A stretch of DNA of 51,095 nucleotides from an uncultured Chitinophaga sp. (GTDB taxonomy: Bacteria; Bacteroidota; Bacteroidia; Flavobacteriales_D; Crocinitomicaceae). Below, piece by piece: positions 7,051 through 40,051 of the stretch. The position numbers were made by a program, and so were the translations under genes. Where the stretch lies: assembly GCA_964532475.1 (NCBI GenBank), contig CAZHLZ010000001.1:14891-65985 (forward strand), read 5' to 3'. Every line of letters starts with the position of its first letter. The first letter of the stretch is position 1. The notes under the pieces were generated by a model. It worked only from the letters and a program-made list of their open reading frames with translations. It searched no databases and was not told the DNA's origin.

Positions 7051-8385
7051 ATGTTCAAAAAAATATTAATTGCAAACCGTGGTGAAATCGCACTTCGTAT
7101 TATTCGTACGTGTAAAGAGATGGGAATCAAAACGGTAGCTGTTTATTCAACGGCTGATAAAGACAGTTTGCCTGTACGTTTTGCAGACGAAGCTGTTTGT
7201 ATCGGACCTGCGGTAAGTTCAAAATCATATTTGTCCATTCCAAACATAATTGCCGCGGCAGAAATCACAAATGCGGATGCAATTCACCCAGGATATGGAT
7301 TTTTGTCAGAAAATGCTCGTTTTTCAGAGATTTGCCAAAAACATGGTATCAAATTTATCGGTGCATTGCCTGAGCAAATTGATTCAATGGGTGATAAAGC
7401 AACAGCAAAAGCAACAATGATTGCAGCTGGTGTTCCTTGTATTCCAGGTTCAGTTGGTTTGTTGAAAGATGTTGAAGATGCCAAAGCCCAAGCGAAAAAA
7501 ATCGTTTATCCAGTTATCATGAAAGCAACTGCTGGAGGTGGTGGAAAAGGAATGCGTATTGTTTGGAAAGAAGAGGATATTGAAAATGCATGGAATTCAA
7601 CTCGTCAAGAGGCTGCAGCAGCTTTTGGAAACGATGGAATTTACATGGAAAAATACATTGAAGAACCAAGACACATCGAAATTCAAATTGCAGGTGACCA
7701 ATACGGAAATGCTTGTCACATGTCTGAAAGAGATTGCTCTATTCAACGACGTCATCAAAAATTGGTGGAAGAAACTCCTTCTCCATTTATGACAGATGAA
7801 TTGAGAGCTCGAATGGGTGAGGCTGCAATTAAAGCTACTAAAGCTGTAAATTACGAAGGTGTTGGTACTGTAGAATTTTTAGTAGACAAAAACCGTGATT
7901 TTTATTTCATGGAAATGAATACGAGAATTCAAGTAGAGCATACGATTACAGAAGAGGTAATTGATTTTGATTTAATTAAGGAACAAATTAAAATCGCAGC
8001 TGGAATTGCAATCTCTGGAAAAAATTATACGCCACATTTACATGCAATTCAGTGCAGAATTAATGCAGAAGATCCATTCAACGATTTCAGACCAAGTCCA
8101 GGGAAAATTACTTCCTACCATTCACCTGGAGGACATGGTGTAAGAATTGATACGCACGCTTATGCTGGTTATACAATTCCGCCAAATTACGACTCAATGA
8201 TTTCTAAATTAATTGTTGTTGCACAAACACGTGAAGAAGCAATTTTAAAAATGAAACGTGCTTTGGATGAATACATCATTGAAGGTGTAAAAACAACCAT
8301 TCCTTTTCACCAAAAATTGATGAATAATGCAGATTTTAATGCAGGAAATTTCACCACAAAATTCATGGAAACATTCGAATTTTAA
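7051..8385 (+). CDS. accC: Biotin carboxylase subunit of acetyl-CoA carboxylase
   Basis: Full-length 444-aa ATP-grasp protein with [12 protein letters not shown] and [10 protein letters not shown] motifs. Confidence 0.95.
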
Positions 8386-8463
8386 GTGTTAAAAAATAAT
8401 ATTTGAAGCCACAAATTCTAAAGAGTTTGTGGCTTTTTTAATTTTTGTTCTATAAGATTTAAA
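8219..8463 (+). repeat. Direct repeat copy A (functional accC 3' end plus terminator)
   Basis: 8221-8385 matches 10891-11055 at 164 of 165 nt. The hairpin 8408-8433 is identical to 11080-11105. Confidence 0.95.
8408..8440 (+). terminator. Intrinsic terminator of accC
   Basis: GCCACAAA / TTTGTGGC stem with a 10-nt loop, followed by TTTTTT. Confidence 0.8.
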
Positions 8464-8521
8464 TAAAATACAAAATCATTTTTACTATTCAAATCGAAGA
8501 TTAAAATGCAGAAATCTATCA

Positions 8522-9754
8522 TCAAAAACTCATTCCGTATTTGTATATTCGAATAAAATTAGCGTCAAAAGCTCCTGTCCATATGACGTCAAATTCATTG
8601 TTATTAAAGAAAATATTGCCCTTGAAAGGCATTAAATCATCGTACAAACTTAGACTTTTTTCTAGATCGAAGATTTGTAAATATTGAGGGATATTATTAA
8701 TTATCTTTTTTTGAAGTACTTCTCTTTCACTACTTGCTGGACAAAAATTTGATTTCTCTTTTTCTTTAGGCATTATTTCAATTAATGATTTAGTGGTATC
8801 AATTATTTCTTTTTGATAATTTCTGAGATAAATGCCCTCATTTCTAATTTGCTTAATTTTGTAATATCCATATGATTCAATTAAACTTGAATTATATTGT
8901 TCGTTACTTAATTTTTCAGTTGCCTTAAATAATTCTTGATGATTCTTTTGAATGTGGGCACCTTTCATATTTATTTTTTCAATTTTATTAGAAGAAAGAT
9001 TAAAAATAGAAATTAATGGAATAAGTTGCTGGGTAATTAAAATCTCATCTTTATTATTGATTATAAAAGAATAGTAATCTGCATAATAATACGATGCCTT
9101 ATGGTAAAGTGTATCATATTCCCCAATTTTTTTAATTAATTTTCCATTTTTGTTAAATACACCTATTAGACCATCTCTTTTGTAATAATTTATTGCTTTT
9201 TTTATGCTTTTGTCTAGATAATTTTCATTAAACTTTTTTTGGATTGCAACGAAGAAAAGGTCGTTTTTTTCATCATATTTAAAATTATTAAAGTAACTTA
9301 CTTGGAATTTAGAAAAATTAAATTTTGGTTTTATACTTTTTATTAATTCACCATTGAATGAATATTTTCTAAGTTCCGTTCCATCAAAATTCATTGCTAT
9401 AATGAAGTTATTTGTAAAATCAAAAGTCCAAGCTTTAAAATCATCCCTCTTATTTTTAGAATTTAACTTTATCCTTTCTAATTTTTTTAATTTCAAATCG
9501 TATTTAAGAAAACAATTCTGTTCAGTGGGAAAGATATAAAGATTGCTGTTTTTAATATTTGTGCTGTAGCCATTGTCTAAAACACCATCAGTATTAAACA
9601 AGTTAATATTGAGTTCGAAGCTATCAACAAGTTGAAAATTTACATCATTTTGAGAAAATATCACTGATAAAGAACAAAAAGTAGCACCAATAAAAATAAA
9701 TACATTTTTATTGGTGCTTAAAATTTTCCTGATCTTTTTTGATGCAATTAACAT
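8522..9754 (-). CDS. Signal-anchored hypothetical protein, possibly a beta-propeller (DUF4221 / 6-bladed-propeller-like)
   Basis: Its ATG at 9754 overlaps the upstream stop (ATGTTAA). The N-terminal hydrophobic segment is VFIFIGATFCSLSVIF. Recurrent short beta-strand-like blocks suggest a propeller. The family assignment is only an impression. Confidence 0.6.
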   Translation of the reverse strand: MLIASKKIRKILSTNKNVFIFIGATFCSLSVIFSQNDVNFQLVDSFELNINLFNTDGVLDNGYSTNIKNSNLYIFPTEQNCFLKYDLKLKKLERIKLNSKNKRDDFKAWTFDFTNNFIIAMNFDGTELRKYSFNGELIKSIKPKFNFSKFQVSYFNNFKYDEKNDLFFVAIQKKFNENYLDKSIKKAINYYKRDGLIGVFNKNGKLIKKIGEYDTLYHKASYYYADYYSFIINNKDEILITQQLIPLISIFNLSSNKIEKINMKGAHIQKNHQELFKATEKLSNEQYNSSLIESYGYYKIKQIRNEGIYLRNYQKEIIDTTKSLIEIMPKEKEKSNFCPASSEREVLQKKIINNIPQYLQIFDLEKSLSLYDDLMPFKGNIFFNNNEFDVIWTGAFDANFIRIYKYGMSF

Positions 9755-10746
9755 CCAGGACAAGATTTGTCAGGGCATGTACCCCAAATATTTGATCTCC
9801 CACACTCACTACATGATCCATTTTTCGCACAAGTCCCTCTAGAGCTAACCCCTTGTGTAGGCGCATCAACAACTTTCGTGCCTCTAGTGCATTTGCATCT
9901 TTGCCATGGCAATGCAGGATAAATATCGGAAAAATTAGAATTCGAAATACTAAGGAACCAAATTTGATTTTTTTTTTCAATTCCTTGATTTATGTTCTCG
10001 GAATTAAAATTTCCACTTGAAATGAATTTAATTCCTTCAATATTTTGTTTATTTATATTATTATTAATTGTTGAAGAAATAATTGGGGTAAATTCAAAAT
10101 TCACTTCTTCACTAAATGGAATAAAAATAAAAACATCATATAATGAACCAGCGACTTCCATGCTATTAAAATTATTTTTCAATACATCAACATCTGTAAA
10201 CGATCCTCCGTTTTTAAGAAGTGATCCTACCATAAGATCCAACAAATTTATATCATACTCCTCCAACTTAGTTTTTAACTTATTCAAATATACTTTTTCA
10301 TTATTGTCTTGGACCTGAATTAACTCTTTTACAATATCTCTAATTATTTGATGATTAGTCAATTCTAAAATTGACATTTTAAGAACTTTTAACCTCTCGT
10401 TAACTAAACTTTCATCTTCAACATTAAAAATTAAATCTTCTATTATTTCTGGATCTTCACAATACTTGTTGGCATAAACTTGTTCACTCAAATTTGTTTT
10501 TACTACCTCAGCTAATTGATCATTGTCATTTATCTTTATTAATACAGATTCATTAGTTGAAAATAAATTTTTTGCGTGAGGACTTGTTTTTCTTTCGCAT
10601 AAAGTTATTTCATCAAAAACGATAGATATTTCAAAGGTCCCTAAATCATAAGTTCCAATAATTTTTCCTTGGTGGATTTCCTCATTTTGAGCGTTTAATT
10701 GAAAAGCGACAAGAAATAGAATTGAATTTAAAATTACTTTTTTCAT
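9748..10746 (-). CDS. Secreted hypothetical protein (332 aa) with a C-terminal 8-Cys module
   Basis: Signal peptide MKKVILNSILFLVAFQLNAQ starts at the ATG at 10746. The last 49 aa read C-x-C-x19-C-x5-C-x2-C-x8-C-x4-C-x2-C and then stop. Confidence 0.7.
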   Translation of the reverse strand: MKKVILNSILFLVAFQLNAQNEEIHQGKIIGTYDLGTFEISIVFDEITLCERKTSPHAKNLFSTNESVLIKINDNDQLAEVVKTNLSEQVYANKYCEDPEIIEDLIFNVEDESLVNERLKVLKMSILELTNHQIIRDIVKELIQVQDNNEKVYLNKLKTKLEEYDINLLDLMVGSLLKNGGSFTDVDVLKNNFNSMEVAGSLYDVFIFIPFSEEVNFEFTPIISSTINNNINKQNIEGIKFISSGNFNSENINQGIEKKNQIWFLSISNSNFSDIYPALPWQRCKCTRGTKVVDAPTQGVSSRGTCAKNGSCSECGRSNIWGTCPDKSCPGC

Positions 10747-10768
10747 AAAATATTTATTAAAGATTAAG

Positions 10769-10794
10769 CAACAAAACAAAACAAAACAAAACAA
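10769..10794. repeat. Pentanucleotide microsatellite (CAAAA)x4 plus partial units
   Basis: Perfect CAAAA x4 at 10772-10791 with partial units on both sides, 23-48 nt upstream of the ATG at 10746. Confidence 0.9.
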
Positions 10795-10890
10795 TTAACA
10801 TTTCCAAATAAAATAAAAAATATTTTACTCTTATTTAAAAAAGAAGTTATACTATTTTTAAAAATCATAAAACATCTTTTTACTAAAATT

Positions 10891-11055
10891 GCACAAACAC
10901 GTGAAGAAGCAATTTTAAAAATGAAACGTGCTTTGGATGAATACATCATTGAAGGTGTAAAAACAACCATTCCTTTTCACCAAAAATTGATGAATAATGC
11001 AGATTTTAATGCAGGAAATTTCACCACAAAATTCATGGAGACATTCGAATTTTAA
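10891..11055 (+). pseudogene. accC: Orphan 3' fragment of accC (last 54 codons plus stop)
   Basis: Translates to [18 protein letters not shown]...TKFMETFEF*, identical to the accC C-terminus. There is no upstream accC body or start codon. Confidence 0.9.
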
Positions 11056-11079
11056 GTGTTAAACAAATTATATCTGAAA

Positions 11080-11111
11080 GCCACAAATTCTAAAGAGTTT
11101 GTGGCTTTTTT
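11080..11111 (+). terminator. Duplicated copy of the accC terminator hairpin
   Basis: Same GCCACAAA...TTTGTGGC hairpin followed by a T-run. Confidence 0.6.
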
Positions 11112-11812
11112 AGTTTTTGTTCCACAAGTTTTAAACGTTTTCCTCCAAAAAACACATAAAATCGAATTTTTGGAATCTCATTCTTATTACTTTGCTCAAT
11201 TTTATACGAATAAGAAATAGTAGAAAAACTTGAAAATTTATTGTCACGAATAAAATCAATTTTAAGTAATTCCTTTTTTATCAATTCACTAAATTCAATT
11301 TCATTGTACAGAGGAACTGGAAATTCTTGCTGATTTTTTCTAAAAAATAAATGTATTGAGCTTCTTGAATCTTTTTCATTAAAGTAACATTTCCCTTTGA
11401 ATTTACTAATCGGTAACTGCATAGAATAAGCATTGATAAGGCCGAAATTTGTGTTAAAATATGGCAAAGCACGCTCAAAAAATCTTTTAATTTTCCAAAA
11501 TTTTTTCCAACTAAATTTTTTATTATAAAAATAGGTCTCTGTAATTAGAGCAAAATCATTTAGAATTTTACTTGAATACAAAGTATCTTTCTTTTTTTTT
11601 GCACTCACTAAAGAATTAAAAAATACATTTTCCAATTGAACATCAAAATTTGATTTGATATTTATTTCATTTGAATCAAGCGTACTTGCTTTAATTTCTG
11701 AATAAAAATCTTGACGATTGACGATATCTGCCAACCTTTTTATGCAAAATTTTCTTTGTCCAATCGAATGAAAGGATAACAATATACTGATTAATATGGA
11801 TAAAATTTTCAT
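11090..11812 (-). CDS. Secreted hypothetical protein (240 aa)
   Basis: Signal peptide MKILSILISILLSFHSIGQ. There is a 1-nt TAATG overlap with the upstream LRR gene. Its stop codon lies in the loop of the duplicated terminator. Confidence 0.6.
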   Translation of the reverse strand: MKILSILISILLSFHSIGQRKFCIKRLADIVNRQDFYSEIKASTLDSNEINIKSNFDVQLENVFFNSLVSAKKKKDTLYSSKILNDFALITETYFYNKKFSWKKFWKIKRFFERALPYFNTNFGLINAYSMQLPISKFKGKCYFNEKDSRSSIHLFFRKNQQEFPVPLYNEIEFSELIKKELLKIDFIRDNKFSSFSTISYSYKIEQSNKNEIPKIRFYVFFGGKRLKLVEQKLKKPQTL

Positions 11813-14337
11813 TAGTCCAAAATACTTTTCCTAATTTCTTCCTCAGTCAAACCTACTGTTGAAAATCGTTTCACATTTGGAACAGATTGTCCATTTTTTA
11901 ATTTTGTCCAAGATTTCACCACAGCAATTTCGAGGGAATTTAAAACATAAAAAAAGATTATTTTCTTAAACAAATATTGTGGGACACGTGAAGATTCAGA
12001 TTCTAAATAAGTGTTGTCAGATCTAATGATTAATCTGGTTGTGCTTGGAACAAAAATTTTTACATTATTTTGATCTCGCATTGAGTCAGCAGTAGCAATA
12101 TAATTTGCTGGAGGATTTCTATAAAAATAATCGCAATTTACCAAGCCGAATTTTTGAAGTCCAAATTTTGTTCGTTCATTTGATAATCGCAAAGAAGGAT
12201 TTAAAAGCTCATTTGCTCGTAAAATTCGATTTAAATCTGCGAATTTCTTTCTATTTTTTTCAAAATGAAGTTTTGCTTTATCAATTTCTGCTTGATTTTT
12301 TTCTTCATATCTTAAATACTTTCTGTAAAAATCATAATTTTCTTTTTGGTAATTTTTGAGGCTTTTCTTTGATTCAATTATTAATGGAACATCGAATTTT
12401 TTTCCTTTATAACTAAACTGAAACATAAACTTATCCTTTTCAAAGTCTGCACTCACTTTAACATCTGAATAATTTCGAGGAGTAAAATCATATAATTTTT
12501 TATTTGTAAAAATTTTAACATTAGCTGTGTCAGAAGCAATCAATTTTATTAATTCATTGTGTTCAGGATAAATTAGGCTGTCAATTATGAGATAGGAATT
12601 TTCTAAAAATTTCAGTCCCTTATCCTCCGTGTAGAAAGTGGTACTTTTGTTATTATAAAATAATTTTTTTTGATTTACATAAAATTCATGCTTGTGATGC
12701 TTTAATGTCAAATAATATTTTCTAGTTTCTTTGAACTTGTGCTTATTTCCTTTTTGATTCAAGTATTGAAGTTTCATTGGGACATGAACAAGATGCATTT
12801 GCGCAAAAAGTGAATCTGGAAGGGCATTTAGTGAATCCATAATTGAATTTTGCGAGCTCGAATTTTGGAGTGTGTTGACATTTTTTTGTAAGCGCTCCCA
12901 ATTTTTCAGTGAATCGTTGTAGGAAAATAAATCTGCTTGTGTGTTTTGTTGAGTATTCTCCATTTCAACTTGGATAATATTTTGTGGATTTGGATTTAAT
13001 TTGTTCCCTTTATCATCGTAAGCATTAAATTCAAACATTCCACTGGAAGAAAATAATTCTGGTGTCCCACTTTCATTCATAATCATTGGAACTCCCGCCA
13101 AAGCTATGCTGATTGGATCAAAATACTCCTTGATTTCAATTTTTACAGTGCCAGAATAAGGCTTCAAGTTTTGGTCTAAAAATGCATTTTTTGGAATATC
13201 AAAAATAGTGTTCTCACTCTGAATTTTACATGGAGTATCAGCTTGAATTTCATGTTTTTCAATCTTCACATCCACAACTTTTTCGACTTGATTTCTAAGC
13301 ATATTTTCACTGAGGGAGAACATTGGGTTTTGCAAATTAGTTTGCTGAATTAAAACGGAATCAAGGTTTGTTGAATTAATAATCTGCACCTTATTTCGTT
13401 TAATTAAATCTTCTTCATTCTCTATAATCGCATCGATGAAAATTAGCTCTTTTTTTGAACTCAAATCTTTTAAATCGCCTTCCAATTTGCTATTTTTAAA
13501 ACTTATTTTGGTAATTTGTTTGAGTTCATTTAAATCATTATACAAATTTTTCGCCTCTATAAAATCACAGTTGTCAAAACTAATCTCCTGAAGATTTTTT
13601 ATATTTGAAAAATTGGGATTTATGTAATTTATGGATGAATTTTTTATCTTTATTTTCCGGATGGAAAGATTATTCATCGCACCGATTGGAAGCTTGTTTT
13701 CATTTTGACTAAAGCTTAATTCTTGCAAATTTTCTTTATTTTGAAGCGAAATAAAAACATTTTCTAGGCTTAATTTTGGATTGTTTTCAAGCTGCAAATA
13801 TTCCAGATCCCACAATTGATTGAGGTAGAAGTTGTCTTCTTTAAGATTGTTAAATGAAAGATTTAGGTATTTCAATTTAACGAGATAATCAAAACTAGGT
13901 GGTAAAAAAGTAATGTTATTGTTACTTAAATCAAGTGTTTCTAAATTCTTTAGTGAACCAAAATTTTCTGGTACAAAGAATAAATTATTTTTCGCTAAAT
14001 TTAGACTTTCGATCCCACTTGAAAAGAAACTTGAAGGAAATTCAAAAAAATTGAGATTTGGATTATCACTTAAGTCAAGACGTTTTAAATGAGTTAATTT
14101 ACTCAAGTCAATTTGAAAATCCTCCAATAAATTATAAGATAAATCTAATTCTTCCAACTCCGTAAAAAGTTCGATTTCCTTTGGGACGAGCTTCAATTTT
14201 TCATGCGATAAATCCAAACTTTTCACACCTGAAGGAGCAATTAATGCTTCCTTTAAATTATCACAATCAATGCATTGCGATAAAATCTCATTTTGAAAGC
14301 TTACAAAAATTAGAATAAAAATCAAGAAATTTTTCAT
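11812..14337 (-). CDS. Secreted leucine-rich-repeat protein (841 aa)
   Basis: Signal peptide, then about 12-13 LRRs (LxxLxLSxNxL, e.g. LEELDLSYNLL, LKRLDLSDNPNL, LETLDLSNNNITFLP). The C-terminal ~500 aa have no recognisable motif. Confidence 0.75.
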   Translation of the reverse strand: MKNFLIFILIFVSFQNEILSQCIDCDNLKEALIAPSGVKSLDLSHEKLKLVPKEIELFTELEELDLSYNLLEDFQIDLSKLTHLKRLDLSDNPNLNFFEFPSSFFSSGIESLNLAKNNLFFVPENFGSLKNLETLDLSNNNITFLPPSFDYLVKLKYLNLSFNNLKEDNFYLNQLWDLEYLQLENNPKLSLENVFISLQNKENLQELSFSQNENKLPIGAMNNLSIRKIKIKNSSINYINPNFSNIKNLQEISFDNCDFIEAKNLYNDLNELKQITKISFKNSKLEGDLKDLSSKKELIFIDAIIENEEDLIKRNKVQIINSTNLDSVLIQQTNLQNPMFSLSENMLRNQVEKVVDVKIEKHEIQADTPCKIQSENTIFDIPKNAFLDQNLKPYSGTVKIEIKEYFDPISIALAGVPMIMNESGTPELFSSSGMFEFNAYDDKGNKLNPNPQNIIQVEMENTQQNTQADLFSYNDSLKNWERLQKNVNTLQNSSSQNSIMDSLNALPDSLFAQMHLVHVPMKLQYLNQKGNKHKFKETRKYYLTLKHHKHEFYVNQKKLFYNNKSTTFYTEDKGLKFLENSYLIIDSLIYPEHNELIKLIASDTANVKIFTNKKLYDFTPRNYSDVKVSADFEKDKFMFQFSYKGKKFDVPLIIESKKSLKNYQKENYDFYRKYLRYEEKNQAEIDKAKLHFEKNRKKFADLNRILRANELLNPSLRLSNERTKFGLQKFGLVNCDYFYRNPPANYIATADSMRDQNNVKIFVPSTTRLIIRSDNTYLESESSRVPQYLFKKIIFFYVLNSLEIAVVKSWTKLKNGQSVPNVKRFSTVGLTEEEIRKSILD

Positions 14338-30636: not shown

Positions 30637-30645
30637 TAAAAAAAC

Positions 30646-31017
30646 AAATCATAAGCCGGGTTCTGTTTCAACAAATTCAAGAAGAAAGTGTTTAGCTATC
30701 ATTTCTCTAGTTCCGACTTCACAATCGGAATCAATCGACCTACCCTCTGAGTTGGACGAGCAGCCCTTTTATCCGAAAAATCGGAAATCCCCAGTTTACA
30801 TGGTCTTTCAGTTCGTAAGGTTTACCTTGCACTAATTATCACTAATTAGACGGTGAGCTCTTACCTCGCCTTTTCACCTTTTCCCCAAACAAGTTCGGGG
30901 TAGTTTTCCTTTCTGTGGCACTTTCTGTCTTCGTTTACACGAATCCTTCCCGTTAGGAAGTACGATGCTCTGCACTGCCCAGACTTTCCTCCTACCGTAG
31001 CAGGCGATAGCTGATTT
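30646..31017 (-). ncRNA. rnpB: RNase P RNA, bacterial type A
   Basis: On the minus strand, GAGGAAAGTCTGGGC lies near the 5' end (plus 30976-30990) and ACAGAACCCGGCTTA near the 3' end (plus 30652-30666). The P1 pairing is AAATCA / TGATTT. Length is about 372 nt. Confidence 0.85.
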
Positions 31018-31024
31018 GTAAAAA

Positions 31025-38725: not shown

Positions 38726-38767
38726 AATTCTCAATTCTCCACTTTTAATTCTACATTCTCTATTTTA
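38726..38767. repeat. Heptad-phased array at the 5' flank of four-helix-bundle gene 2
   Basis: AATTCTC AATTCTC CACTTTT AATTCTA CATTCTC TATTTTA. 38747-38759 is the perfect 13-nt reverse complement of 38278-38290. Confidence 0.85.
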
Positions 38768-39747
38768 CGAGGTTCATACTTTTTCGCCAAATCCGCTATC
38801 ACTTTGATATGTGCCGGAGTTGTTCCGCAACAGCCACCGATGATGTTTACAAGGTGCTCATCCAAAAAGGTTTTGATTTGTTCACCCATGAGTTCTGCAG
38901 TTTCATCGTATTGACCGAACTCGTTTGGTAAACCTGCGTTTGGATGTGCTGAAACGGCGAAGGGAGATTCTTTATCCAAAATCTGCAAATAAGGACGCAT
39001 CATGGAAGCTCCTAAGGCACAGTTTAGACCAATACTTAGCAATGGCATGTGAGAAACTGAAATCAAAAATGCTTCAGTTGTTTGTCCAGTCAAGGTTCTT
39101 CCAGATTGATCGGTAATAGTACCAGAAACCATAATTGGCAATTTCTTATTACGTTCTTCAAAAACCTCATCTATTGCAAACAAGGCAGCCTTTGCGTTTA
39201 AGGTATCAAAAACAGTTTCAACTAACAAAATATCAACTCCACCATCCATCAAGGCATTTACTTGTTGTTTGTAAGCAGTTACCAATTCTTGGAAGGTAAT
39301 CCCTCTAAATCCAGGATCATTTACATCTGGAGAAATGCTTGCAGTTCGGTTTGTTGGACCAATTGAACCGGCAACAAAACGCGGTTTATCAGGATTGAGC
39401 GCTGTGAATTCATCTGCAACTTTTTTGGCAATTTTTGCTGAATGAAAATTAATATCATACACTGCAAATTCTAGATCATAATCCGCTTGCGCGATGGTTG
39501 TTCCAGAAAAAGTATTTGTTTCAGCGATATCTGCACCTGCCTCAAAATATTGACGGTGAATATCTTCTATGATTTCAGGACGTGTCAAGGAAAGTAAATC
39601 GTTGTTTCCTTTTAAAGGCTTGTGGTGATTTTCAAACCAGCCTTTGCGAAAATCTTCTTCTTCGAGTTTATGACGTTGAATCATCGTACCCATTGCTCCG
39701 TCTAAAACAAGAATTCTTTTTTTTAGGATTTCTTCTATTTTGCTCAT
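38731..39747 (-). CDS. metH: Methionine synthase homocysteine-binding (S-methyltransferase) module as a separate ORF
   Basis: LDGAMGT and the GGCCGTTPAHI zinc-ligand motif. It ends at ..YEPRK (E. coli ..APRK linker) plus a 10-aa tail, IENVELKVEN, encoded by the repeat array. The ATG at 39747 is preferred. Confidence 0.9.
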   Translation of the reverse strand: MSKIEEILKKRILVLDGAMGTMIQRHKLEEEDFRKGWFENHHKPLKGNNDLLSLTRPEIIEDIHRQYFEAGADIAETNTFSGTTIAQADYDLEFAVYDINFHSAKIAKKVADEFTALNPDKPRFVAGSIGPTNRTASISPDVNDPGFRGITFQELVTAYKQQVNALMDGGVDILLVETVFDTLNAKAALFAIDEVFEERNKKLPIMVSGTITDQSGRTLTGQTTEAFLISVSHMPLLSIGLNCALGASMMRPYLQILDKESPFAVSAHPNAGLPNEFGQYDETAELMGEQIKTFLDEHLVNIIGGCCGTTPAHIKVIADLAKKYEPRKIENVELKVEN

Positions 39748-39801
39748 AATATCTAATTTATACTTTAAAACATACAAATTAAGAGGGTTGATGAACAAAC
39801 A

Positions 39802-39923
39802 CTTATCTTTTCAGTCAAATTACTGATAGGATTTGGCACCGGTTTTCCAATCCCGATTAATCGGGACTTATAGTTGGTTGCCAAGGTTTCGTAGGGCCTT
39901 ATCCCTCCACCTTTCTTAATAAG
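39802..39923 (-). promoter_or_regulatory. SAM-I (S-box) riboswitch
   Basis: The minus strand reads CUUAUUAAGAAAGGUGGAGGGAUAAGGCCCUACGAAACCUUGGCAACC...GGUGCCAAAUCCUAUCAG...GAAAAGAUAAG. This matches the S-box core and the P1 pairing CUUAU/AUAAG. Confidence 0.85.
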
Positions 39924-40051
39924 TTTCGCTTAAAAAAATTGAATTTTGATAAGCTTATGATTTTAAAGAACTAAGGCAAAATTACTAAAAATTCTTAAAA
40001 AAATTGTTATATTTAAATAAATTTTGAAAACTTACGTTTTAATATACTAAA

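Follow-up and report, generated by a model that had tools for sequence, protein, structure and literature searches.

What is an exported protein for when its last 49 residues hold eight cysteines and its gene runs directly into that of a second, probably exported, protein? The question is raised by a two-gene cassette on the reverse strand of the 51,095-nucleotide (nt) stretch of Bacteroidota DNA analyzed here (the window), in which gene A encodes the cysteine-rich protein and gene B its partner. Our reading, a tentative one at slightly less than an even chance, is that A and B form a horizontally moving, Sec-dependent effector and cognate-partner cassette of the Bacteroidota, organized like a polymorphic toxin or bacteriocin system. 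The anatomy of the cassette, its modularity, its conservation, its gene linkage and the signature of its insertion were directly established; the function is one that we infer, and with it the disulfides, the binding of B to the tail of A, the toxicity and the target.

Anatomy of A and B

The coding part of gene A (9751-10746, reverse strand) was read as an open reading frame (ORF) and translated to 332 amino acids (aa). Its N-terminus is a signal peptide, MKKVILNSILFLVAFQLNA, with cleavage before QNEE, which bears out a sequence-only reading of the same DNA in which a 332-aa protein with a clear signal peptide had been described. Glutamine at position +1 after cleavage by signal peptidase I (SPase I) is the Q-rule of the Bacteroidetes (PMC5837995), and the signals of A, of B and of most of their relatives are of SPase I type with glutamine at +1, consistent with this rule. 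Behind the signal lie an N-terminal domain (N-domain), a middle domain (MID) and a Cys tail (Table 1). The net charge of the MID is negative in 30 of 30 members; P210 is its only near-invariant residue, and no catalytic-type residue is conserved in the alignment. The start of B was found inside the stop of A, also as had been described, with ATGTTAA at 9754..9748 of the reverse strand.

Table 1 Coordinates of the A-B cassette, its parts and the repeats at its borders.
Feature	Coordinates	Strand	Remarks
Gene A, 332-aa secreted modular protein	9748..10746, including TAA stop 9748-9750	-	ORF and translation
Sec/SPase I signal peptide of A, aa 1-20, ...LNA/QNEE	10687..10746	-	Read from sequence
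N-domain of A, aa 21-105, invariant C50 and C96, shared carrier domain	10432..10686	-	Occurs without MID or tail in 46 cluster representatives, whose C-termini are unrelated
MID of A, aa 106-275, acidic, helical, NGG and IFIPFSE motifs	9922..10431	-	Alignment and jackhmmer classification
Cys tail of A, aa 276-332, YPALPWQRCKCTRG...CPGC-COOH	9751..9921	-	8-Cys module of the sequence-only reading, 9751-9897
ATGTTAA start/stop overlap of A and B	9748..9754	-	ATG of B overlaps the last TGT and TAA stop of A
Conserved region 5' of the cassette, a probable promoter/leader that contains a GTTTT-repeat tract	10747..10826	-	DNA similarity to L001 begins at 10826
Gene B, 410-aa exported partner, beta-propeller-like (NHL-like blades), no known family	8522..9754	-	ORF; homologues; AlphaFold2 (AF2)/Foldseek
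16-bp perfect hairpin and T-run inside codons 13-24 of B, just past the stop of A	9683..9718	-	Terminator-like scan
Direct repeat copy 1: accC 3' end, bidirectional terminator, decayed 3' remnant of neighboring ORF	8219..8465	+	
Direct repeat copy 2: truncated accC 3' end and terminator	10889..11137	+	44-aa accC C-terminal pseudo-copy at 10921-11055

Protein A ends in CKCTRGTKVVDAPTQGVSSRGTCAKNGSCSECGRSNIWGTCPDKSCPGC. Within the last 49 residues (9751-9897), Cys stands at positions 284, 286, 306, 312, 315, 324, 329 and 332, the last being the final residue of A, and the spacing C-x-C-x19-C-x5-C-x2-C-x8-C-x4-C-x2-C is an exact match to the pattern read earlier from the letters. At the Cys frequency of the window (1.25%), about 0.0026 such 49-aa segments would be expected in its 15,033 coding residues, and the second most Cys-rich protein reaches five. 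Chance falls far short of explaining eight Cys in 49 aa.

The tail is also strongly conserved. Across 30 tail sequences with identities to A of just 21-64%, the eight Cys and G304 are invariant and P280, R288, R317 and G322 are near-invariant, with the consensus LPWRRCYCTR...G.C...C..CGR..F.G.C....C.GC; Cys is the last residue in 28 of the 30. The ratio of nonsynonymous to synonymous substitution rates (dN/dS) between the window and its homologue at locus L001 is 0.08 for the tail, as compared to 0.26 for the N-domain and 0.27 for the MID, and by this measure the tail is the most constrained part of A. All 31 tails counted have an even number of Cys, eight in 29 of them and ten in the other two. 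Taken with the invariance of the eight Cys and with Sec export, these even counts make disulfide bonding probable and point to four putative disulfides in the tail.

A cationic defensin-like peptide with an anionic pro-piece was considered and rejected as a family trait: the pre-region is acidic in 30 of 30 members and the tail charge averages about zero. One MID subfamily (P0021, P0033, P0034, P0043, P0050 and P0057, where P numbers denote cluster representatives) has a 6-Cys tail instead of the 8-Cys one, with an extension of 15-30 residues ending in Asn (..PPFN, ..KWN, ..PPMN, ..IFN) or, in P0057, in Asn-Leu (..KWNL).

The tail had been proposed as compositionally foreign from hand counts of about 47% GC against about 18% elsewhere in the same gene. 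The counts themselves are accurate (0.469 for 9751-9910 vs 0.183 for 10021-10140). The rise is located at codon positions 1 and 2 (GC at position 2, 0.6-0.8), with GC at position 3 (GC3) just 0.28-0.32. We ran a composition-corrected test of the kind that had been named as able to refute the idea, drawing synonymous codons for this peptide at random according to the codon usage of the window itself. The step disappears: expected tail GC was 0.454 ± 0.020 and observed 0.463 (z 0.45), and expected GC3 was 0.226 ± 0.056 and observed 0.286 (z 1.1). The step is explained by amino-acid composition, and the claim of a compositionally foreign tail is therefore not upheld; the tail is unusual in its amino acids and not in its nucleotide origin. 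A recent fusion of a foreign tail at residue ~283 was likewise rejected, since the GC is that expected from composition and MID plus tail is an old unit (see below). By comparison with the relatives, the true domain junction of A is at about aa 105.

The N-terminus of B carries an apparent cleavable SPase I signal (VIFS/QN, Gln at +1), and five of six B members have an SPase I signal and no lipobox. This signal indicates that B is probably soluble and exported, and makes the earlier suggestion of a membrane-anchored partner doubtful. B is 52% identical to its counterpart at L001. The AF2 model of B has strands at a predicted local distance difference test (pLDDT) score of 60-86 over residues 64-262, and although the model is of low confidence, all of its top Foldseek matches are propellers (Lp49, YncE, DUF4221 3s9j, BtuG2/BT1954, NHL; template modeling (TM) score ~0.2-0.35). 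A B profile searched against the PDB reached the NHL protein Thin at a sub-threshold E of 0.45. The beta-propeller-like partner of the earlier reading is weakly supported by these matches. Only S45 and Y217 are invariant among six B sequences, and the absence of conserved catalytic residues and of any enzyme-family match suggests that B is a binding protein rather than an enzyme. For the same reasons a processing role for B, one of the two proposed earlier, is less likely than a binding or immunity role.

The hairpin at the start of B folds strongly (-30 kcal/mol over 101 nt, z -5.8) and may reduce the expression of B compared with that of A. The idea of a conserved attenuator was rejected: strong here, the hairpin is absent from the L001 and L073 homologues.

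Modularity, gene linkage and insertion signature of the cassette

Relatives of A were collected by an exhaustive HMMER search with the A alignment (E<=1e-3), and their modules were classed by sequence reading and per-module jackhmmer. The search returned 100 cluster representatives, whose match ranges divide A into its three modules. The N-domain (aa 21-105) occurs with other C-termini in 46 of the 100, and MID plus tail in 30. The complete N-domain, MID and tail arrangement was found in four (the window, P0001, P0005 and P0007), the N-domain with the MID in another four, and the MID with variant or other C-termini in 11; in the remaining five, the tail sits on a divergent carrier that keeps a Y-x-P-F-[YS]-[DE] motif. 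Most MID-plus-tail proteins are 260-285 aa long, with a lipoprotein-type N-terminus ending in Cys and then charged residues. Judged from these comparisons, MID plus tail is an ancient conserved unit. A word-indexed (k-mer) protein search had returned two relatives of A (P0001, 64% identical over its full length, and one 98%-identical fragment) and one relative of B; in light of the 100 relatives from the exhaustive search, it under-sampled the family.

The C-termini attached to the N-domain alone include Gly-zipper-like tails, several Cys-rich tails and PKD-containing regions. A conserved N-terminal region joined to diverse C-terminal domains, one of the criteria for polymorphic toxins, was accordingly found both in the 46 N-domain-only representatives and in the MID with its alternative C-termini. 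Other, unrelated Cys-rich C-termini on the N-domain were seen in P0017, P0019, P0025, P0035 and P0091, in P0018/P0055, in P0044, in P0052 and in P0068; they include a C-x-G-x-C-x-C...C-S-C-x-x-C-T-M unit present in duplicate and a tail of the CCGNYSGCC type, and none belongs to the library families. Scans of GTDB genomes with subfamily-specific patterns (including NIWGTCP) gave no real match, a result that says nothing on the wider family in reference genomes. A metagenome scan with LPWRRCYC[TS]R gave three matches, one of them real (locus L070), and scans of viral contigs gave no real matches.

Which gene comes next varies with the C-terminal module. The tail-bearing gene has a B-family gene (384-410 aa) immediately 3' of it at seven loci (the window, L001, L064, L065, L070, L073 and L075); the same loci were seen repeatedly, L001 also as L002/L003, L065 as L066 and L073 as L074. 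The A proteins of these B-linked loci are mutually diverged (27-64% identity), and a hidden Markov model of the B family confirms all linked B genes at E values of 1e-18 to 1e-170. The 7-nt ATGTTAA-type overlap is kept in three lineages with N-domain, MID and tail (the window, L001 and L073/L074), and in the lipoprotein subfamily a gap of 14-78 nt separates the A-type and B-type genes, with no overlap. P0020 and P0014, in which the N-domain carries Gly/Ala-rich hydrophobic tails, are instead followed after 5-10 nt by ORFs of 72 and 65 aa (L076 6946-7164 and L082 993-1190), each with two hydrophobic helices by inspection. Such a Gly-zipper-like tail with a 65-72-aa two-helix ORF looks like a pore-former and membrane immunity pair, on the reading of the sequences; the Gly-rich tails scored below threshold against glycine-zipper models (Gly-zipper_Omp, E 0.01). 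Downstream of P0098, a MID with a different C-terminal domain of ~200 aa, lies the gene of a signal-peptide protein of 258 aa that is unrelated (hhalign probability 0.1%). A downstream gene that co-varies with the C-terminal domain, a further criterion for polymorphic toxins, was thus found, on few loci. As read from these sequences, a downstream gene changing with the C-terminal module is the layout of polymorphic toxin-immunity systems.

The neighborhoods of the A-B pair all differ. An RND efflux operon lies upstream at L001, and the pair follows DjlA at L065 and an MFS transporter at L073, sits between CorA and bestrophin genes at L075 and follows accC in the window. Between the window and L001, the cassette DNA is 70% identical from 10826 to 8675 (a span that starts 80 nt 5' of A and stops close to the end of B), and the flanks are unrelated. 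In the window, a near-identical 247-bp direct repeat brackets exactly the A-B cassette, for a repeat unit of 2670 bp. The repeat contains the last ~167 nt of accC, a bidirectional terminator and the final ~15 codons of the neighboring ORF, and its two copies differ at one position in the first ~170 nt. Such a pattern would be left behind if a 2.67-kb circle had integrated by a single crossover (Campbell-type) or in an att-like manner, and the cassette looks freshly inserted. No recombinase is encoded inside the repeat-bracketed unit. The 247-bp duplication is an unusually clean example of a cassette landing beside a housekeeping gene.

The pair as a proposed effector and partner

The mixing of N-domain, MID and tail, the tracking of the C-terminal module by the downstream gene and the varied genomic contexts together favor a toxin-immunity-like cassette, and the lack of conserved catalytic residues in the MID or B fits binding proteins. 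In such a cassette, A would be exported by Sec and its signal peptide removed, the N-domain and acidic MID would serve as carrier or pro-regions, and the C-terminal ~57 residues would form a compact four-disulfide domain, a functional warhead that binds its target and is not catalytic. B, exported and co-made with A via the overlapping start and stop, would be a non-enzymatic, propeller-like binder of the tail, most likely neutralizing it in the producer's envelope (immunity). A broader proposal, somewhat less likely than the reading above, is that these proteins represent a new Bacteroidota superfamily of polymorphic effectors, either Sec-exported or lipoproteins. Here a ~85-aa N-terminal carrier plus acidic MID would present swappable warheads, among them an 8-Cys four-disulfide fold neutralized by a periplasmic propeller (a new immunity class), with no specialized secretion system.

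Several observations weigh against an effector and immunity pair. A, its tail, B and the MID-only and N-domain-only relatives gave no family match in Pfam, NCBIfam, PADLOC, PHROGs or PDB sequences, and the tail, searched for a known toxin fold, matched nothing in Pfam, NCBIfam or PDB sequences at E<=10. The structure models are poor (AF2 pLDDT 33 for A, unusable; mean 49.8 for B). No dedicated genes for a route across the outer membrane lie nearby, and A lacks the C-terminal domain for type IX secretion (T9SS). The tail is strongly conserved family-wide and not hypervariable; nor is it consistently cationic, with a mean net charge of about zero, a negative charge in 15 of 30 members and +4 in the window's own copy. 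At 410 aa, B is large for an immunity protein. Informative loci are few (seven with the tail, two with Gly-rich tails and one with another C-terminus). At one tail-bearing locus, L067 (991-1290), no B-like gene lies downstream; the ORF is partial, high in GC and unlike its neighbor, and as the contig is short, at ~1.9x coverage, and may be chimeric, the locus is either uninformative or a possible exception. The toxin or bacteriocin cassette with an immunity or processing partner proposed in the sequence-only reading is partly supported, on comparative grounds, by N-domain modularity, downstream-gene tracking and an isolated cassette in unrelated contexts, and finds no match to a toxin or immunity family.

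We also considered that A and B are subunits of a stable, non-antagonistic extracytoplasmic complex with a redox or metal/cofactor role, in which the tail plugs into or sits on the propeller. Reasoning by analogy, we consider this unlikely. The start/stop overlap suggests matched synthesis and both partners are exported; the Cys, G304, R288 and R317 are conserved, the C-terminal carboxylate is fixed in position, and the terminal and internal C-x-x-C resemble metal or redox motifs. Methylamine dehydrogenase (MauA/MauB) and the gamma/beta subunits of quinohemoprotein amine dehydrogenase likewise join an exported small Cys-rich polypeptide to a propeller of ~350-400 aa. They share no homology with A-B, however, and the Cys domain of A is part of a larger protein. 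Neither A nor B matched the amine dehydrogenase light or gamma subunits (MauA/QhpC) or, in Pfam, cofactor families, and none of the genes called at the loci examined is a maturation gene (MauG-type, radical SAM); the window neighbors checked were fatty-acid, sugar-nucleotide and rhodanese/beta-lactamase genes. For metabolism, a pair so rare and patchy, freshly inserted and found in varied contexts would be atypical; hardly any polar residue of B is invariant, and a complex would leave the Gly-zipper-like tails and tiny membrane ORFs associated with the same N-domain unexplained. Were it nonetheless correct, A-B would be a new exported Cys-rich/propeller pair. A different role for the tail, somewhat less probable again, is that of a disulfide-knotted peptide of ~49 aa, freed after LPW(R/Q)(R/K) from A as its long pro-protein, with B aiding maturation, folding or release. 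This is consistent with the conserved basic pair that immediately precedes the first Cys in most members, with a pre-region as acidic as a pro-piece in 30 of 30 and with the tail being the most conserved part, and a propeller fold is present in some peptide-processing enzymes. Yet some members lack the basic pair (P0009 and P0011 have SW), and conserved residues reach upstream of the putative cleavage site (YPALPW), such that the tail domain appears to begin before it. Additionally, B lacks a conserved catalytic set or enzyme-family match, and the loci examined show no linked protease, transporter or modifying enzyme.

The least probable of the rivals, in our estimation, is one drawn by analogy with BtuG: the A family would be surface (lipo)proteins whose tail is a ligand-binding or adhesive knob, with B as co-receptor, in nutrient capture or adhesion. 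Most MID-plus-tail members do have a lipoprotein-type N-terminus, and BtuG2/BT1954 and other Bacteroides surface propellers are among the Foldseek matches of B. These matches are to generic propellers at low TM scores from a low-confidence model, though, and the signal of B is of SPase I type and not a lipobox in nearly all members. No TonB-dependent transporter or Sus-like gene is linked at the loci examined, and the change of downstream gene with the C-terminal module is left unexplained.

The modules of A and B appear, on sequence grounds, to be undescribed Bacteroidota families whose logic, that of a polymorphic toxin or bacteriocin cassette, is already known; our literature search found no paper describing the A, B or module families. 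Polymorphic toxins were reportedly defined by Zhang, Aravind and colleagues by a shared N-terminal trafficking region, a variable C-terminal toxin and an immunity gene immediately downstream. A-B resembles them in the shared N-domain on many C-termini, the co-varying downstream gene and the small cassettes in varied contexts. It differs in that A would be exported by a Sec signal or lipobox only, with no type V, VI or VII (T5, T6, T7) or Rhs/CdiA-type machinery, in that its domains lie outside the catalogued toxin and immunity families, and in that the Cys tail is conserved and has its own MID carrier. No T5, T6 or T7 secretion system, Rhs or MafB-type delivery genes were found near the cassette or at L001, L065, L073 and L075. 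SitA of Myxococcus is a lipoprotein polymorphic toxin delivered by outer-membrane exchange; SitA proteins are mainly cytoplasm-acting nucleases, with cytoplasmic SitI immunity. In both SitA/SitI and A-B, a protein with a Sec or lipoprotein signal has a modular N-terminal region and an effector, a proposed one in A, at the C-terminus, and the cognate gene lies next to it. A-B differs in that both proteins are exported and the tail is small and Cys-rich; the likeness is one of description, with no sequence relationship found.

Among smaller molecules, the disulfide-stabilized antimicrobial peptides (defensin-like bacteriocins, knottins) recall the tail in its ~50 residues, eight invariant Cys, even number of Cys, export and acidic pre-region. 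They differ from it in that the tail has no solved-structure match, no consistently positive charge and an attached carrier of 200-280 aa. Class II bacteriocin traits were absent, with no GG leader on A (332 aa, SPase I signal) and no adjacent ABC/C39 gene; Bacteriocin_IIc matched one Gly-rich tail of a relative at an E of 7.2 only. No maturase of ribosomally synthesized and post-translationally modified peptides (radical SAM, LanM, YcaO etc.) was found at the loci examined, and B has no Pfam or NCBIfam match. A likewise gave no match to the T9SS sorting domain (Por_Secre_tail/TIGR04183), and its tail is a 57-aa Cys-rich segment and not a beta-sandwich of ~80 aa. In Bacteroides, NVEALA small proteins adjoin genes for 6-bladed propellers (DUF4221/DUF5128/TolB-like), in a system whose function is itself not known. 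The likeness to A-B lies in a small exported peptide-like gene beside an exported propeller in Bacteroidota, and 3s9j (DUF4221) is among the Foldseek matches of B; A and B gave no match to the PF14055 (NVEALA), DUF4221, DUF5128 or TolB_like models at E<=1-10.

The secreted toxins of Bacteroidota known to us are few: MACPF proteins, bacteroidetocins and effectors of the type VI secretion system. If A-B is indeed an effector and immunity cassette, uncatalogued domains (the N-domain carrier, MID pro-region, 8-Cys warhead and propeller partner) would join the repertoire of interbacterial antagonism in this phylum. The N-domain would then be a handle for mining warheads, the present search having already turned up Gly-zipper tails and Cys-rich tails of at least four other kinds, and the 8-Cys tail would offer a new type of scaffold, small and rich in disulfides, that comes with a defined binder protein.

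Neighboring features of the window

Together with the next two genes, the cassette makes up an island of low GC (0.25-0.29 vs ~0.35); GC3 is similar throughout. The first of these genes is a 240-aa signal-peptide ORF (11090-11812, -; GC 0.25), whose last ~15 codons lie inside repeat copy 2, with a decayed copy in repeat copy 1; it has no match in Pfam, NCBIfam, PADLOC or PHROGs. The second encodes an 841-aa signal-peptide protein (11812-14337, -; GC 0.29) with N-terminal leucine-rich repeats (LRR_8, E 2e-15), which also matches phrog_6688, a phage-protein family of no known function, at E 1.9e-24. The window has no tRNA genes. Its RNase P RNA (30640-31019, -; 233 bits) and its S-adenosylmethionine (SAM) riboswitch (39800-39925, -), upstream of the ORF at 38731-39798, are ordinary chromosomal features.

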